Positions 6,879 to 61,248 of a stretch of 64,000 bases of DNA are shown here, in pieces; position 1 is the first letter of the stretch, and the number at the start of each line of letters is the position of its first letter. The position numbers were made by a program, and so were the translations under genes. Source of the DNA: Acidiferrobacteraceae bacterium (GTDB lineage: Bacteria > Pseudomonadota > Gammaproteobacteria > HyVt-429); assembly GCA_011052015.1 (NCBI GenBank), contig DRJZ01000051.1, positions 828 through 64,827 on the forward strand, written 5' to 3'. A model generated the notes under the pieces. That model was not told where the DNA came from. It saw nothing but the letters and a program-made list of their open reading frames with translations, and searched no databases.

Positions 6879-9275
6879 CTAGATTACAGCCGCACTATTG
6901 CTGCCTTTTTCCCGGAGTCGTGCAAAAGCGATGAAAGCCGCCATATAGATGACCAGCGCTATCAGAAATAATAATTTAAATCCGATATATAGCGTCAACA
7001 CAACGCTCAGGACTCCTCCAATTACGGTAAACAGACCGTTCATGCCCCATGCCCATGGTATGGCGCCTTTTGGTTGATCCTGGATCGCCAATATACCCAG
7101 AGGCAGAGGCATGCCCATGAATATACCCAGGGGAATTATCATTGCTAATGATATCCCGATCCTTATCCAGATGGGTTCTTGCAGGAACGTATTAAATATC
7201 CAATGGTACGAGAATAGAAAAACAATCCCTATTGTCGCTATTCCGATAAATGGCCAATACCATTTATTTTTAACATCGATACCCAATTTCTGGGCTGCCA
7301 GACTGCCTAGTCCTGCCGCCAAGAGTAATGCAAACACGACCGTCGAATAGGTGTAAAGTGGATACCCGATCAGCTTCATGAACATCTGGATAAACATTAA
7401 TTCGATAATGATGAATCCAGCCCCAAGACATGAGAAATAAATGAGAGTCGTGGTTTTGGAATTCCAATGCGCCCGCCCCGCACTTGAATAATAGAGAGGG
7501 GCAACAATAAATAACACGATAAATATTAATGATGCGTAGCTTGTGATCACCAGGTGGAATATTTCTCGTGGAATACCCAGTTTACTAAGTTGTGAATTTA
7601 ACAGCGACGCGGTTGAGTAATCCATGTAAACGCCGCTTCCAGGCATTATTTTCTCGGTACTCTTGCGGAGGAAGTTGAAGAACGGTCTATTGTCGGTAGA
7701 GGCGAAAATATTGAACGGACTTTTTTCTATCGTTTCGGGAGATAACCTGCCGCTAAAATACTCGTCTGGGAGATATCTATTTTCACCGGATAAAGGATCC
7801 TCAACCAACTCTCTCTTTGAAATGATGCTATTCATTTCCGTGACTTCTTTTTGTGTCCAGGGACTCATTTTGACCATAAATGTGGGTAGATTGTCCTGAA
7901 ACCCTTTTGTTTTGTTTTGATAAACCAAAACGTGTTGCCTGAAGCTCGTGTAACCCAGTTTTCTCCAGGCTGCGGCGGCAGTGGTAACCATGCGTGGATA
8001 TACATGGTGGTTTATTTGCAGGACGCCATCTTTCTTCAGGTGCCTGAAATACTCTATATAGGCTTCGACGGTCTGGAGATAGGTTGTCGCCATTGCTCCA
8101 TTGCCCGCCGCGATGCTTGAGCTTGTGTGGTTGCTGAATATCTGGATGATGTCGTATCTCTTATTTTCCGATCTCAGGAAGCTTCTACCTTCCCCTTTGA
8201 GGTAGTTCACATTAGGATGATTGTAGATTTGTCCATTGTATGACGCGTATTTCTTCTTACCCAGTTCCACGACATAACCGACCAGTTCGATGGCGTCGAT
8301 AGTGGCTGCACCATAGGTAAGCGCCGCTTTGACTTCCTGCCCACCGGCACTGCCGATGACGAGAACGTCCTGTTGGCTATCACGCTTGAGATAATGTGAT
8401 GCAATGACAGCCGGATGCGTAAATTGTTGCCGATAATTTGCCGGCAGCCCCTTGCGCAGTTTCTTAAAATTACCATCGAACTTGACGACAACACTTGTCT
8501 GTGACCCTCCGTCATATAGAATATCTTTTCTTGCTTCAAAACCCGCCACGTCTATCTTCGATACCGGATCCCAATGGGTCAATTCTATTTTTCCCAGTAA
8601 TCGTAGTGTCCTGATGTTCCGCTTATCGCCGTGCGCCTTAAATACGAAGTAATCGGCCGAAGACACAAAGGGTGCGACTATACATGCCGTACCAATAACT
8701 AGCGCCACGTTTCGCCATACAATGTGCTTCGCAAATAAGCCCGACGCGATAATGCAAATCCCACCCACCATAAACAATAGGCCACCTGGACCCACATATG
8801 GCAAAAATGGAATAATAGCAATGCTGCCGAGACCCGCACCGATCAGGTCCCAGAAATACAGCGTTCGGATATTCGATGCGTACTTGGAAAAAAGAATCGC
8901 AAATACACTGCCCGAGAAGAAGAACGGTAAGGCCAGCACAAAATATACTATAAGTATAAGAAACACACCCTTTTTCGGATCAGAGAATAAAATATCAAAA
9001 TCAAAGTCCAGGTAATTTAATACAGGAAGTATTACTATGCTGAAAACACCGAATGCAAAGGCCATCACAGATAATCTGAATGCCGGGTCCTTGTGTGCAG
9101 CCAGCGGCTTTAAAGATAAATATATACCTGCCAGGGCAAAGCAGAACAAGGCGAGTGTTATCACCATATACGCCATGTGCGGAGCCCACAGCGAATCAAA
9201 TATCTTAATTAAAGTTAGTTCCAGCATCAAGGTTGCGAAAGCAACCATGAACAGTGCAACCTTGGTTTTAATCAT
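6879..9275 (-). CDS. Fused MFS-like membrane domain / spermidine-synthase-like (PABS methyltransferase-fold) integral membrane protein
   Basis: Many predicted TM helices at both ends; central Rossmann/PABS-like motif (VLVIGSAGGQEVKAALTYGAATIDAIELVGYVVELGKKKY...YDIIQIF); markedly AT-rich codon usage relative to the neighbours. Confidence 0.5.
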   Translation of the reverse strand: MIKTKVALFMVAFATLMLELTLIKIFDSLWAPHMAYMVITLALFCFALAGIYLSLKPLAAHKDPAFRLSVMAFAFGVFSIVILPVLNYLDFDFDILFSDPKKGVFLILIVYFVLALPFFFSGSVFAILFSKYASNIRTLYFWDLIGAGLGSIAIIPFLPYVGPGGLLFMVGGICIIASGLFAKHIVWRNVALVIGTACIVAPFVSSADYFVFKAHGDKRNIRTLRLLGKIELTHWDPVSKIDVAGFEARKDILYDGGSQTSVVVKFDGNFKKLRKGLPANYRQQFTHPAVIASHYLKRDSQQDVLVIGSAGGQEVKAALTYGAATIDAIELVGYVVELGKKKYASYNGQIYNHPNVNYLKGEGRSFLRSENKRYDIIQIFSNHTSSSIAAGNGAMATTYLQTVEAYIEYFRHLKKDGVLQINHHVYPRMVTTAAAAWRKLGYTSFRQHVLVYQNKTKGFQDNLPTFMVKMSPWTQKEVTEMNSIISKRELVEDPLSGENRYLPDEYFSGRLSPETIEKSPFNIFASTDNRPFFNFLRKSTEKIMPGSGVYMDYSTASLLNSQLSKLGIPREIFHLVITSYASLIFIVLFIVAPLYYSSAGRAHWNSKTTTLIYFSCLGAGFIIIELMFIQMFMKLIGYPLYTYSTVVFALLLAAGLGSLAAQKLGIDVKNKWYWPFIGIATIGIVFLFSYHWIFNTFLQEPIWIRIGISLAMIIPLGIFMGMPLPLGILAIQDQPKGAIPWAWGMNGLFTVIGGVLSVVLTLYIGFKLLFLIALVIYMAAFIAFARLREKGSNSAAVI

Positions 9276-12706: not shown

Positions 12707-12830
12707 TCAAAACCTTTATTGATGTGTTACTACTCTGTATCCCCGTGTCCTCTGTGGTGAAAAATTGTGCACGGAGCACCCTGATTCCTTGGTGGCTTGA
12801 AGACGACGGTGTCCAAGGAGCAATAAGCAC

Positions 12831-14134: not shown

Positions 14135-14334
14135 GAAATATCACCCCGATGGAAAGGTCATGAGTTTTGCTTATCGGGATGCCAAATACAAGAAAAAAAA
14201 GCGGTCGGGCCTATTTTTTTGCTCTTCAGGATATTGTGGATCCTTCATTAAAGAATAATGGACCTCGCAAAGACATCAAGCCCGCAAAGTCAGAGGTTCC
14301 TTACATTCTTTGCCTCTTTTCTCTACAACTAAAA

Positions 14335-15453: not shown

Positions 15454-15614
15454 GTCCTATCCTTTATTGCTCTGAGCTCAGCCTGGATACTACCCCATAG
15501 CATTGCTGAATTCAGATAAAAGACCGCAGTTCAAAATATTCGCGTCTGGAAAGGCGCTCCTCCAAGGGGGAAAAATACCCTGGCCCCTACAGAAGCGAGC
15601 TCACGATCAAACTA

Positions 15615-15732
15615 AAGAAATTCTGATCAATTGAACTTGAACCGCCAAGATGCCAAGAATTTTCTTTATAAAAACCAACAATCTATTAGCTTGGCGACCT
15701 TGGCGGTTTGAGCGCATTAATCAGAGGTTCCC
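15615..15732 (+). mobile_element. MITE-like element copy 1 (imperfect 17-bp TIRs, TA target duplication, internal CGCCAAG repeats)
   Basis: TA|AAGAAATTCTGATCAAT...ATTAATCAGAGGTTCCC|TA; near-identical copies at 25352-25476 and 52660-52800. Confidence 0.6.
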
Positions 15733-15740
15733 TATAAATA

Positions 15741-25251: not shown

Positions 25252-25351
25252 ATAAAAAACTGTCGTGCGCTACGCGCCACGCGTGGCTTGTAGATTATAT
25301 TTCGGCAGGATTATACCCTCACGAGATTGTCCTGTCCCGTGAGAATAGCTA

Positions 25352-25476
25352 GGGAAATTCTGATCAATTGAACTTAAACCGCCAAGACGCCAAGAATTTT
25401 CTTTATAAAAATCAACAATCTATTAGCTTGGCGACCTTAGCGCCTTGGCGGTTGAGCGTATTAATCAGAGGCTCCC
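25352..25476 (+). mobile_element. MITE-like element copy 2, inserted next to tRNA-Lys
   Basis: TA|GGGAAATTCTGATCAAT...ATTAATCAGAGGCTCCC|TA; internal CCGCCAAGACGCCAAG ... CTTGGCGACCTTAGCGCCTTGGCGG. Confidence 0.65.
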
Positions 25477-25482
25477 TAGAAA

Positions 25483-28215: not shown

Positions 28216-28230
28216 GGCGCCTAAATTCTA

Positions 28231-28361
28231 GGGAAGCTCTGATTAATTCGTCATTCCGGCCGTAGCGAAGCGAAGAGCCGGAATCCAGAGTAGTAAAACC
28301 AATATGTTACTGGATTCCCGCTTTCGCGGGAATGACGGGCAGAAATTAATCAGAGGTTCCC
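28231..28361 (+). mobile_element. MITE-like element copy 4 (same TIRs, different internal hairpin cargo)
   Basis: TA|GGGAAGCTCTGATTAAT...ATTAATCAGAGGTTCCC|TA (16 of 17 positions match as a TIR); interior is two hairpins (CGTCATTCCGGC...GCCGGAATCC and GGATTCCCGCTTTCGCGGGAATGACG). Confidence 0.6.
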
Positions 28362-28587
28362 TAAGTAACACTTCTCTCGTATTGCACTTATTCGCCACGG
28401 AGGACACAGGGTGGTAACACATCTTTCTCTCTGTGACCTCCGTGGTGAAAAATATTGTCCGGGGGACACTGCTATTGGTCGCACTGACAGTGCATTTCAG
28501 AGAAGAGCTAAATTTTTCTATCACCCATTGATACTTAGGGCAAGAAATGCACAAGAATTAAGTCATTATTGCAACTGTTGGGTTAAG

Positions 28588-29831: not shown

Positions 29832-31178
29832 TCAGAACTTACGATTATACGGAGACCAGGCCGGTTCTCTCACATCCCCTTTCAGGAATCTCAATATTTG
29901 TTTGACCCGTCCGTCCGCCGATACGGCCGCCAGCACCCCACGGCCCCCCTGCTCAGTAGCATAGAGTATCATCCGGCCATTGGGAGCAAAACTAGGAGAT
30001 TCGTCCAGGGTGGCCTCGGTGAGGACATGCATGGCATTTTGCCTCAAATACAGCACTGCGATGCGATAGCGTCCTTTATTTGCGCTGACCAGAGTAATGG
30101 ATTGGCCATCCGCCGCATAGCTGGCCCGGGCATTATATTCGCCCTCAAAGGTGATACGCTGAGGCTTGCCCCCACTCACCGCAATGCGGTAAATCTGCGG
30201 CTTTCCGCTACGATCAGAGGTGAACACGATATGACGGCCATTGGGCGACCATGCCGGTTCAGTGTCGATGGCATGGTGGTGAGTCAGGCGGCGTAGTTGG
30301 CGGCTGCGTGGCGACAAGATATAGATTTCCGGATTGCCGTCCCGAGATAGCACCAGGGCCAGACGCTTACCGTCCGGGGACCAGGCCGGCGCGCTATTGA
30401 GGCCACGAAAGTCCGCCAGGCGTTCGCGGCTACCATCGGCCAAAGTTTGCACATAGACCATCGACCGCCGTTTCTCAAAAGAGACATAGGCCAGACGCTT
30501 ACCGTCCGGGGACCAGGCCGGTGACATAATGGGCTCTCCGGAATCCAGCACCGTTACCGGTTCATGGCCGTCGGCATCGGCGACCTGCAATAAAAACCGT
30601 CTTTGGCCACTGTCACTTTGCTCCACCGTCACATAGGCGATGCGGGTATCGAAGGCCCCGGGTTCACCGGTCAGTTTTTCGTATATAATATCGCTTATCT
30701 GATGGGCCACCTTGCGCATTTGCTTGGCCTTGACCACGTAGCGATAGCCTGCCAACTGTTTGCCTTTAAAAACATCAAACAATTGAAACTGCACTTGATA
30801 GCGGTTACTGCCGACACGTTGCACTTTGCCCACGGCAAGCGCCTCGGCCTTGATAAGGCGCCAATCCTTAAACTTCACCCCCGCCTGATCATGGGGTCGT
30901 GATAGAAAATCATCCTTATCGATACTCTCGAATCGACCGCTACGCACAAGATCGTCGCCAATAATCTTGGCCAAGTCCTGTGATGGCTTGCCCTCACCCT
31001 GCCAGGCAAAGGGTACAATGGCAATCGGTACGCCAGCCTCAACACCCTTGGTGATCTCAATCTTCAGAATCGCCATTGTCTGGCAGACCCACAACTGCAA
31101 ACCTATCCCCAATAACGTTGTTGTGATTAACTTTCTCATGTGTCTGTACTTCCTACCCTTTTTGCGGATCAAATTCAA
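29832..31178 (-). CDS. tolB: TolB
   Basis: Repeated PAWSPDG beta-propeller blades ([39 protein letters not shown]). Confidence 0.9.
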
Positions 31179-49719: not shown

Positions 49720-49766
49720 CGGCCAGACCCCAACGAATCGTAATTATGAATAAGGCCTTCTCTTCG

Positions 49767-49924
49767 CCACTGAGGCACGGAGAACACAGAGAAAAACATG
49801 TAGTTAAAGCGTATCGCATCATCATTCATGACCATGCAGAACAAGGGGGTATGCCCGGAACCATCATGATGGCCAGTAGCCATAGCATACAAGGTCATTC
49901 TCCGTGTTCTCCGTGCCTCAGTGG
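49767..49924. repeat. REP-like long inverted repeat pair (21-bp arms separated by about 116 bp)
   Basis: CCACTGAGGCACGGAGAACAC (49767-49787) and GTGTTCTCCGTGCCTCAGTGG (49904-49924) are exact reverse complements; related single arms occur elsewhere in the window. Confidence 0.7.
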
Positions 49925-49966
49925 CGATGTGCCTGCTTACCTACTCAATATGAAGTACTCACAGGA

Positions 49967-51003: not shown

Positions 51004-51327
51004 AAGTCGACAAGATGTGCTCCAACCATCACTCCGGGCCGTTGCTTTGTCATTCCGAGTGCAGCGAGGACTCTCAACCTGCTTAACAAAGGCAATAAAC
51101 TCAACGGGTTAAGATCCTTCGACGCCTTGCGCCTCAGGATGACTAAAATCGAGTATAGCGATGGCGCTTTCATGTCCTCACACAACTCATTAGCGTGTAA
51201 CCACTGAAGTAACAGCATTTTAATGCGCTTTCGTGATTATCAACTGGGACAGTAGTGGGGTAGGCCATATTCCAGGATGATCATCAACGCACCACCTCTG
51301 GGCTTGGCAACAGACGTGCATCGACTG

Positions 51328-52611: not shown

Positions 52612-52659
52612 AATATGTACCCGCCGATTATAACCGCCTCGGGACCACCCCTCCACCTA

Positions 52660-52800
52660 GGGAACCTCTGATTAATACGTTCAACCGCCAAGGCGCCAAG
52701 GCGCCAAGGTCGCCAAGCTAGTAAATTGTTGATTTTTATAAAGAAAATTCTTGGCGCCTTGGCATCTTGGCGGCTCAAGTTCAATTGATCAGAATTTCCC
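52660..52800 (-). mobile_element. MITE-like element copy 3 (opposite orientation, one extra CAAGGCGCCAAG unit)
   Basis: TA|GGGAACCTCTGATTAAT...ATTGATCAGAATTTCCC|TA; sits between proA and holA, flanking TA 52801-02 lies inside the holA stop codon. Confidence 0.65.
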
Positions 52801-53837
52801 TAGAGCGGTTTGAGGCCACATAGACGCAGGCTAAACCGTTCCAGCTCAAGCCAAATATCCCCGTCCCGCCGCCCCTTGAGCACCCGATCCAGCCGCGCTA
52901 CCCACTGGATCATGCCTAACCATGCCGAGGCCGAAAACCGGGACAAGGCGGCGCCAACCTTAGGGGCACGCTGGGACCACACTCGATGGGCCTTGAAGAC
53001 CTGAGCACGAGACCGGCCGGCAGCGATCTCGCAAGCGATGGCCTGTAGAGCATGCACCTCCCGGCGCAAGGCCCAAAGCGCAAGGACAGGCTCAGTGCCT
53101 TCGGCGCGCAGGTTGTGGATCACCCGCAGGGCCTTGCTGGCCTGTCCCAACAAGCAGGCATCGACCAACGCATAAACATCGAAGCGTGCATTGTCGGCAA
53201 TGCTCGAACGGGTAGTAGCCAGATCTATGCTTCGATCCGGACACAATAGGTCCAGTTTATCGATCTCTTGGGCTATCCCCAAGAGGTTCCCACTTAGGTA
53301 ATAGGCCAGCTCCTCTATCACACCGGGCTGAGCGATCAATCCCCGCGATTTGAGTCGCCGACCAATCCAGTCTGGAATCTTGTCCTCGGCGACAGGCCAG
53401 CAAGGAACGTTCACGCCGACCCCATCTAAGGCCTTAAACCAGCGGCTTTGTCTGGCGGACTTATCCAATCGCCCGCAAACAACCAGCAACAGAATATCTT
53501 CGGGGGGTTGTTCGGCCCACTGTGTCAACACACCACCACCCACATCGCCGGGCCGACCGTTGGCAATACGCAATTCTACAACGCGCCTTTGGCTAAACAG
53601 CGAACCGGTGTGACAGTCTTGAGTCAGCTGCCCCCAATCAAATCTGGGGTCCACCGTATACACCCTTCGCTCATCAAAACCCTGGCTACGGGCGCAATGG
53701 TGGATGGCGTCCACAGACTCCTCCACCAGCAAAGTCTCATCGCCAAAGACAAGATAGACCGGCGCCAGAACACCTTTGACGTGGACGCCTATTTGTTGCG
53801 GATTGACTATCATGAGTAATCTGCGTAACCGGCACAA
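52800..53837 (-). CDS. holA: DNA polymerase III delta subunit HolA
   Basis: HolA N-terminal pattern (PVYLVFGDETLLVEESVDAI); position between lptE and proA as in Pseudomonas-type synteny. Confidence 0.75.
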   Translation of the reverse strand: MCRLRRLLMIVNPQQIGVHVKGVLAPVYLVFGDETLLVEESVDAIHHCARSQGFDERRVYTVDPRFDWGQLTQDCHTGSLFSQRRVVELRIANGRPGDVGGGVLTQWAEQPPEDILLLVVCGRLDKSARQSRWFKALDGVGVNVPCWPVAEDKIPDWIGRRLKSRGLIAQPGVIEELAYYLSGNLLGIAQEIDKLDLLCPDRSIDLATTRSSIADNARFDVYALVDACLLGQASKALRVIHNLRAEGTEPVLALWALRREVHALQAIACEIAAGRSRAQVFKAHRVWSQRAPKVGAALSRFSASAWLGMIQWVARLDRVLKGRRDGDIWLELERFSLRLCGLKPL

Positions 53838-57084: not shown

Positions 57085-57130
57085 ATTCGGACGAATGCTT
57101 GGCTCTCGCAAAGGCGCCAAGCACGCAAAG
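57085..57130 (+). repeat. Left copy of a ~45-bp direct repeat (partner at 58860-58905) flanking a 3-gene islet; contains the MITE-internal GGCGCCAAG motif
   Basis: CTCGCAAAGGCGCCAAGCACGCAAAGGAAAAGGCAGCTATGGTC versus CTCGCCAAGGCGCCAAGTGCGCAAAGGAAAAACGGCTACGGTG (about 80% identical, same orientation). Confidence 0.55.
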
Positions 57131-57304
57131 GAAAAGGCAGCTATGGTCAATCGCTTTATTAAACAATCCAGCTATTCTACCCCACAAGGGGTGCACCGAG
57201 GTCTGCGGGCTTAGCACCTTTGCGAGAGAAGTTAGATATCAAATCATACGCTGGATCGTTTACTTGGCCAAACTTTCCCCCAGGTTTTTCTGAGGAGGCG
57301 TAGT

Positions 57305-58704: not shown

Positions 58705-58859
58705 GAATTCAACCCCCCTGGCGAACCGAACCAGTCGGCACAGTGTCCATTATTTAGGAAACCAGGGTCCCAAGTAAACCCGGCGGCTGCATAAATTGCC
58801 TCCTCAAGAAAATCTGTGGGGAAAAATACAGCCCAGTGTATGCTTTGAGAGTCGATACT

Positions 58860-58905
58860 CTCGCCAAGGCGCCAAGTGCGCAAAGGAAAAACGGCTACGG
58901 TGACG
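58860..58905 (+). repeat. Right copy of the islet-flanking direct repeat
   Basis: See the 57085-57130 feature. Confidence 0.55.
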
Positions 58906-61059: not shown

Positions 61060-61117
61060 GGGCTAAAACACCACACCGGTCATAAATAACCCCGCCGCAA
61101 GCAAGCGGGGTATTAAT

Positions 61118-61215
61118 CGAAAGAACGTTCTAAACCGCCAAGACGCCAAGGACACCAGAAAAATATGTCTGCCAACACTTTGGCGCGCTTGGCATCTTGG
61201 CGGTTCAGCATTAAT
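61118..61215 (+). repeat. Decayed MITE-like remnant (internal CCGCCAAGACGCCAAG...CTTGGCATCTTGGCGG core between ATTAATC motifs, GGGAA termini missing)
   Basis: Core matches the interior of copies 1-3; TIR ends degenerate. Confidence 0.4.
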
Positions 61216-61248
61216 CATGGCAAGCTGTGGGCACACAACCCTCAGAGA

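Follow-up and report, generated by a model that had tools for sequence, protein, structure and literature searches.

Short inverted-repeat elements in an Acidiferrobacteraceae contig duplicate four bases at YTAR and are probably mobilised by an IS5-type transposase

IS630-mobilised MITEs such as RUP of Streptococcus pneumoniae, and the Correia elements of Neisseria, duplicate 2 bp (TA), and IS630 itself prefers CTAG and duplicates TA. The terminus of E. coli IS5, in turn, reads GGAAGGTGCGAATAAG and differs from the termini described here. Short elements derived from the IS5 family are also on record, namely ATR of Neisseria (parent ISNme1) and BrickBuilt, MITE293 and MITE700 of Porphyromonas gingivalis (PMC4596501), and YTAR is the target motif of IS5 (PMC5009759).

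The window, by which we mean the whole 64,000-nucleotide stretch of an Acidiferrobacteraceae contig that was analysed, carries four elements of 116-139 bp with matching inverted termini, together with two decayed remnants. Like RUP and the Correia elements, they are about 100-150 bp long, have terminal inverted repeats (TIRs), lie between genes, form hairpins and occupy a TA-centred target, but the window family differs in its 4-bp duplication and in its IS5-type full-length carriers. With ATR and BrickBuilt they have more in kind: both sets are short and non-coding, have only their TIRs in common with full-length IS5-family elements around unrelated interiors ('type II'), and vary between copies in the number of internal tandem repeats. 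ATR and BrickBuilt, however, come from other subgroups of IS5, their termini being of the GAGACC... type and their duplications variable or lacking, whereas the window elements have GGAA..TCTGAT.AAT termini, a regular 4-bp YTAR duplication and an 8-bp internal unit. The elements are very probably MITEs mobilised in trans by a DDE transposase of the IS5 family (IS5 group), with a 4-bp duplication at YTAR.

Anatomy and setting of the window copies

The first-pass annotation had placed four copies at 15615-15732, 25352-25476, 52660-52800 (inverted) and 28231-28361, with remnants besides, and all of these were recovered. Specifically, the terminus pattern GGGAANYTCTGATYAAT, allowing at most two mismatches, occurs eight times in the window on both strands, marking both ends of all four elements; dinucleotide-preserving shuffles gave an expectation of 0.17 matches, and none of 100 shuffles reached eight. 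The elements and remnants, with ends set as argued below, are as follows.

15616-15731, plus strand: MITE copy A1, 116 bp, subfamily A, CGCCAAG-octamer interior
25353-25475, plus strand: MITE copy A2, 123 bp, subfamily A
52661-52799, minus strand: MITE copy A3, 139 bp, subfamily A, inverted, with additional 8-bp units
28232-28360, no strand given: MITE copy B1, 129 bp, subfamily B
about 61113-61217, plus strand: decayed subfamily-A copy, arms kept, termini eroded
about 14262-14300, plus strand: remnant of a right end standing alone, CGCAAAG/ATCAAG octamers, then TCAGAGGTTCC, which covers 11 nt of the terminus, then TTAC

The TIR comprises 16 bp, GGAA(N)(Y)TCTGAT(Y)AAT, and the elements end in GGAA...TTCC. 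Within a single copy, 12-15 of the 16 bases are complementary, and in the three-copy subfamily A the termini are imperfect (12-13 of 16); the left terminus of A1 is mutated to AGAAATTCTGATCAAT, with AAGAA in place of GGGAA. The earlier description of inverted termini common to all four copies thereby stands, although not their length of 17 bp, their perfection in subfamily A or a GGGAA start at the left end of A1.

Subfamily A is named here for its CGCCAAG octamer arms and has three copies in the window, whereas subfamily B, with one, is named for its GTCATTCC hairpins. The interiors of A1, A2 and A3 are one shared sequence, 84-96% identical by the repeat finder, while B1 shares only the termini with them, as had been noted: its ends, GGAAGCTCTGATTAAT and GGAACCTCTGATTAAT, are those of subfamily A, and its interior of nested GTCATTCC...GGAATGAC hairpins is unrelated. 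The direct and inverted CGCCAAG/CTTGGCG repeats reported for the interiors are real and explain why the copies differ in length by steps of 8 bp. The octamer units read GCCAAGNN on one arm and CCTTGGCG on the other, and lengths that differ by such units point to slippage in the octamer arrays. In the decayed copy the hairpin arms AAACCGCCAAGACGCCAAG ... CTTGGCATCTTGGCGGTT are intact and match A2 at 20 of 20 positions, and the termini have degraded to ATTAATC... and ...ATTAATCA.

Folded as single strands, the copies form long hairpins (DNA fold z of -4.3, -2.7, -5.9 and -8.5 over the four, with B1 at -36.6 kcal/mol and z -8.5). The family as a whole spans 106-139 bp, within the range of about 50-1000 bp for bacterial MITEs, and is non-coding; the sole ORF over any copy, a spurious 103-aa TTG ORF, runs across B1, and no transposase gene lies inside the elements. 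At the gathering threshold, Rfam matched only tRNA-Lys in the window, and the elements correspond to no known RNA family.

All four copies lie between long ORFs, in keeping with their earlier description as intergenic, and they occur in both orientations relative to neighbouring genes. A1 follows the terminator of an SCP2-domain gene and precedes the start of a PilT-like (T2SSE) ATPase gene, and A2 begins about 3 nt past the yeeE/yedE stop codon, ahead of the yeeE/yedE terminator hairpin and tRNA-Lys. B1 lies upstream of a radical-SAM gene, probably queE, that precedes queC. A3 occupies the holA-proA spacer, which it lengthened by 143 bp; the CTAG duplicated at 52800-52803 includes TAG, the stop codon of holA, and the duplication preserved it. 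Downstream of A3, before the proA start, there is a conserved GGTTATAAT.

The window DNA recurs at 99.98% identity in the marine-sediment assembly ERZ508539 at about 12x coverage (L001, L145), and A1 is also present in the metagenome contig L001. The short-read Logan contig L002 (SRR14803404, positions 1-60) ends within A1, the kind of break to be expected where an assembly runs into a dispersed repeat.

The linked transposase, empty sites and the age of the family

Three full-length elements with the same termini were identified, each in the genome of another organism: L056 6086-7268 and L026 378-1560, of 1183 bp each, and L013 1659-2853, of 1195 bp. L056 and L026 come from one MAG and their transposases are 100% identical; their duplications read CTAG/CTAG and GTAG/GTAG, respectively. 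Each of the three carries one ORF of about 318 aa, and the L056 protein scores 360.6 bits against NCBIfam NF033581 'IS5 family transposase' (cutoff 140), 107.9 bits against Pfam DDE_Tnp_1 (PF01609) and 73.1 bits against DUF772 (PF05598). In these respects the carriers resemble E. coli IS5 and plasmid IS5-group elements, which are likewise about 1.2 kb long with one ORF of about 320 aa (DUF772 + DDE_Tnp_1; NF033581). Shared, furthermore, are the 4-bp duplication at YTAR and ends that begin with GG and contain the CTGATCAA core, 13 of 16 bases being the same as in an element of the Klebsiella michiganensis plasmid pMX581-77k (L124). The MITEs differ from all of these in being 106-139 bp long and lacking a transposase. 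The pMX581-77k element, whose transposase is 64% identical to the 318-aa protein, reads TTAA|GGCAATGCTGATCAAG ... CTTGTTCAGCATTGCC|TTAA with a 4-bp duplication, and the 13 identical positions are found on comparing its terminus GGCAATGCTGATCAAG with GGAAATTCTGATCAAT of the window. The nearest annotated plasmid genes, at 64-65% identity to the 318-aa protein, are labelled 'IS5 family transposase'.

Beyond about 17 terminal bases, the MITEs no longer match the full-length elements. As such, the MITEs are linked to an IS5-type transposase through the termini and the duplication only, and they are not simple internal-deletion derivatives of the full-length elements found. By their sequence, the window MITEs are 'type II' MITEs, with termini shared with full-length elements and an unrelated interior. 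Most likely, an IS5-group DDE transposase (318 aa, DUF772 + DDE_Tnp_1), supplied in trans, would bind both 16-bp termini, excise or copy the element and insert it at YTAR, mostly at CTAG, CTAA/TTAG or TTAA, where staggered cuts 4 bp apart followed by repair would generate the 4-bp direct duplication. We infer that such an IS5-type transposase is present in the source organism now, or was recently, and moved these copies.

The 318-aa transposase has more than 8000 metagenome relatives, the best 120 of which are 75-81% identical and include none labelled Acidiferrobacteraceae. Many relatives lie on contigs that measure about 1.2 kb, which is what a repeated insertion sequence would be expected to give. 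In a tblastn search with the 318-aa protein over the window and all fetched loci, only L056, L026, L013 and two plasmid loci matched; no IS5-type transposase was found in the 64-kb window or in about 130 kb of contigs with sister copies. In the full-text literature, the terminus string CTCTGATTAAT led to unrelated papers only.

Presence and absence of the elements were compared at three sites, numbered 2 (A2), 3 (A3, holA-proA) and 4 (B1), in a syntenic contig of GCA_013152415.1 (about 84-88% nucleotide identity; L122, L143) and two Logan contigs, with L122 and L123 covering sites 2 and 4 and L143 and L144 covering site 3. The fetched stretch of the syntenic contig ends about 3 kb from site 1 (A1). 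Overall the relatives are about 85-93% identical to the window; they are diverged lineages, not strains of the same species. Before alignment, the element and one copy of its duplication were removed by hand from the window sequence. No terminus match occurs anywhere in these relative contigs. At site 3, where the window reads AACCGCT-CTAG-[139 bp]-CTAG-GTGGAGG, both L143 and L144 read AACCGCT-CTAG-GTGGAGG (AACCGCTCTAGGTGGAGG); with its single CTAG, this is a textbook empty site. At site 2, the window minus A2 and one CTAG is collinear with L122 and L123 from the yeeE stop into the conserved terminator hairpin. B1 is likewise absent from the orthologous spacer of L122 and L123 at site 4, which is partly ambiguous in that a second, unrelated hairpin repeat is differently placed there. 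In its own right, the tRNA-Lys flank is a variable spot: downstream of tRNA-Lys, L122 (11549-14290) carries an additional acyltransferase gene and a DDE_Tnp_1_6 transposase fragment, both absent from the window.

A metagenome scan with an interior 22-mer of subfamily A returned 11 ORDP01 contigs, 4 VAOU01 contigs and 2 unrelated matches. The ORDP01 contigs belong to a marine-sediment assembly with coverage of about 9.5-12.7x, and this coverage, together with a naming style matching ERZ508539, suggests that they derive from the same organism as the window. Loci of the sister copies overlap the window nowhere except in the elements themselves, and they carry more copies of both subfamilies, including subfamily-B copies at L133 663-792 and L138 4968-5088. 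Altogether at least 13 further copies (subfamilies A and B) lie at distinct loci in marine-sediment contigs. At L133, two MITEs (545-658 and 663-792) follow each other in head-to-tail orientation, separated by one CTAG (659-662), and the latter of the two belongs to subfamily B; the arrangement suggests repeated insertion at one target or insertion into an earlier duplication.

Among thirteen aligned subfamily-A copies, 3 of them from the window and 10 from the metagenome, identity is 88-100% (median 93%). Several pairs reach 96-97%, and the copies in L138 and L141 do not differ at any of 115 bp, although they occupy different sites and have different duplications. Empty sites in relatives, copies at other loci and two identical copies agree with the original proposal of a multi-copy non-autonomous transposon (MITE) family. 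Judged from sequence comparison, the expansion appears to be lineage-specific and fairly recent, since even relatives that have diverged by only about 7-15% lack the elements at these sites. At the same time some copies are already decaying, as can be told from the mutated terminus, the imperfect duplications and the remnants.

These signs of decay also bear on whether the family is a fossil, once moved by an IS5-type transposase whose gene has since been lost from the genome, leaving copies that are immobile and decaying. Such a history would fit the lack of a transposase in the window and the sister-copy contigs, the defects of the window copies (one terminus mutated, two duplications imperfect) and the two remnants beside them, and a median pairwise identity of 93% that is not near 100%. 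It is nevertheless unlikely, given the two copies that are 100% identical at different sites with different duplications, the several pairs at 96-97% and the sites empty in relatives only about 7-15% diverged; repeated insertion sequences are, moreover, often missing from short-read assemblies, and absence from about 200 kb says little for that reason.

A broader scenario, which we rate as distinctly improbable, would have the IS5-clade terminus GGAA-N-Y-TCTGAT-Y-AAT captured repeatedly around pre-existing host hairpins. The outcome would be a swarm of 'type II' MITEs, unrelated to one another, across uncultured Gammaproteobacteria, Deltaproteobacteria, Gemmatimonadales and others, with subfamilies A and B as two such captures and a GTCATTSY module, described below, as horizontally spread cargo or a transposition enhancer and not a product of chance.

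Four duplicated bases instead of two

In the window, A2 lies between CTAG (25349-25352) and CTAG (25476-25479) and A3 between CTAG (52657-52660) and CTAG (52800-52803), whereas A1 has CTAA (15612-15615) and CTAT (15732-15735), an imperfect 4-bp duplication, and B1 has CTAG (28228-28231) and CTAA (28361-28364); two of the four copies thus have perfect duplications, and in the other two the flanks match at three of four bases. CTAG is palindromic, however, so that C-TA-[GGGAA...TTCCC]-TA-G and CTAG-[GGAA...TTCC]-CTAG are the same sequence and the window alone cannot separate them. Copies at targets other than CTAG are therefore needed to tell a TA duplication from a 4-bp one.

Such copies came from a terminus scan of one genome per species, which yielded at least 119 stretches, mostly from uncultured Gammaproteobacteria, in which the ends were then paired. 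The scan pattern required GGG at one end, which biases the fourth duplicated base to G but not the equality of the flanks. Of 73 paired elements, drawn from the window and the fetched loci, 44 are flanked directly outside GGAA...TTCC by a 4-bp direct duplication without mismatch and a further 16 have flanks that match at three of four bases; the next 4 bp outward, which served as a control, gave no perfect match and one three-of-four match in 72. The 44 perfect duplications comprise TTAG (14), CTAG (13), CTAA (9), TTAA (3), CTAT (2), GTAG, ATAG and CAAG, and YTAR (TTAG, CTAG, CTAA, TTAA) accommodates 39 of them. Thirty are not of the form C..G, and cannot be read as TA plus GGG...CCC. In the unbiased set, subfamily-A copies retrieved through the interior 22-mer only, the perfect duplications are CTAG, CTAA (four times), TTAA, TAAG and TTAG. 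Perfect 4-bp repeats that are not C..G place the true ends at GGAA...TTCC, with a 16-bp TIR, one base inside the earlier coordinates on each side, and the element boundaries have been corrected accordingly. A 3-bp TNA duplication, as in other IS5 subgroups, was considered and rejected, because the fourth base also matches.

The first-pass annotation had assigned the elements to IS630/Tc1-mariner-type MITEs, with 17-bp GGGAA...TTCCC termini inserted at TA (within CTAG) and a duplicated TA. All four window copies can indeed be read as TA-GGGAA...TTCCC-TA with a C before the left TA, and this reading fits 20 of the 73 pairs. It fails at the 30 of 44 perfect 4-bp duplications that are not C..G (CTAA, TTAG, TTAA, CTAT), where the outer G...C pair is not complementary, and more generally perfect duplications of CTAA, TTAG, TTAA, TAAG and CTAT break a GGG...CCC terminus. 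Three of three full-length elements with these termini encode, furthermore, IS5-family transposases, and no IS630-type gene stands next to such termini anywhere in the fetched DNA. Both the TA duplication and the IS630/Tc1-mariner assignment have accordingly been abandoned as very improbable.

Equally remote is the idea that these are host-maintained palindromes, either REP/BIME-like repeats spread by RAYT or terminator or regulatory RNA hairpins: the intergenic position of all copies, their strong hairpins and the presence in the same window of other hairpin repeat families without these termini would suit it, but REP elements have no terminal inverted repeats and target duplications, while 4-bp duplications are the rule here, the elements are missing from the orthologous spacers of relatives, which argues against a conserved function tied to the sites, and they lie in both orientations relative to flanking genes with no Rfam match.

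Accompanying repeats and meaning of the family

The window contains other repeats besides the MITEs. A second, unrelated hairpin repeat family, CCAC(T/G)GAGGCAC(G/A)GAG...CTC(C/T)GTGCCTC(A/C)GTGG, lies at 49764-49927, 12734-12783 and 28380-28471; at 49764-49927 its arms are 30 nt long, 97% complementary and 104 nt apart. In relatives it appears at L122 about 8330-8400 and L123 about 740-810, in the same spacer as site 4 but at another position. Octamer hairpins of the CGCAAAG/GCCAAG type (CTCTCGCAAAGGCGCCAAGCACGCAAAGG ... CCTTTGCGAGAG), similar to the arms of subfamily A but without termini, occur at 57100-57232 and 58858-58890 and may be related repeats or very old remnants. Upstream of 51328, the spacer contains an isolated GTCATTCCGAGTGCAGCGAGGA motif (51049-51080), which may be a piece of a hairpin of the subfamily-B type that lacks termini. 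Finally, an exact 33-nt direct repeat (30357-30389 and 30489-30521, 132 nt apart) within a tolB-like ORF (29832-31178) is possibly an internal protein repeat.

Among 69 short elements with the termini described here, 15 have a GTC(A/G)TT(C/G)(C/T) hairpin module that lies immediately internal to one end or to both. They are found at L019, L028, L043, L055, L063, L096, L100, L106, L110, L113, L118, L133, L138 and window 28232-28360, and the taxa in which they occur are distant from one another, among them Woeseiaceae, Thiogranum, Deltaproteobacteria, Gemmatimonadales and Arenicellales. With the module present across such distant taxa, the MITE lineage or module to which subfamily B belongs is a very widespread one.

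MITEs derived from IS5 are already known, and conceptually nothing is changed by this family, whose members are an ordinary kind of selfish DNA. The gain is one of annotation: a repeat family of an uncultured sediment sulfur oxidiser (Acidiferrobacteraceae) is placed in the correct transposase family and its boundaries are moved by one base. A general point follows from the way the targets look, namely that TA and 4-bp duplications appear alike when every local copy is in a palindromic CTAG. For the source organism, the MITE copies fragment short-read assemblies. Additionally, the copies occupy spacers that are 3' untranslated or inter-cistronic, and the target of one includes a stop codon; speculatively, they could affect transcript ends.
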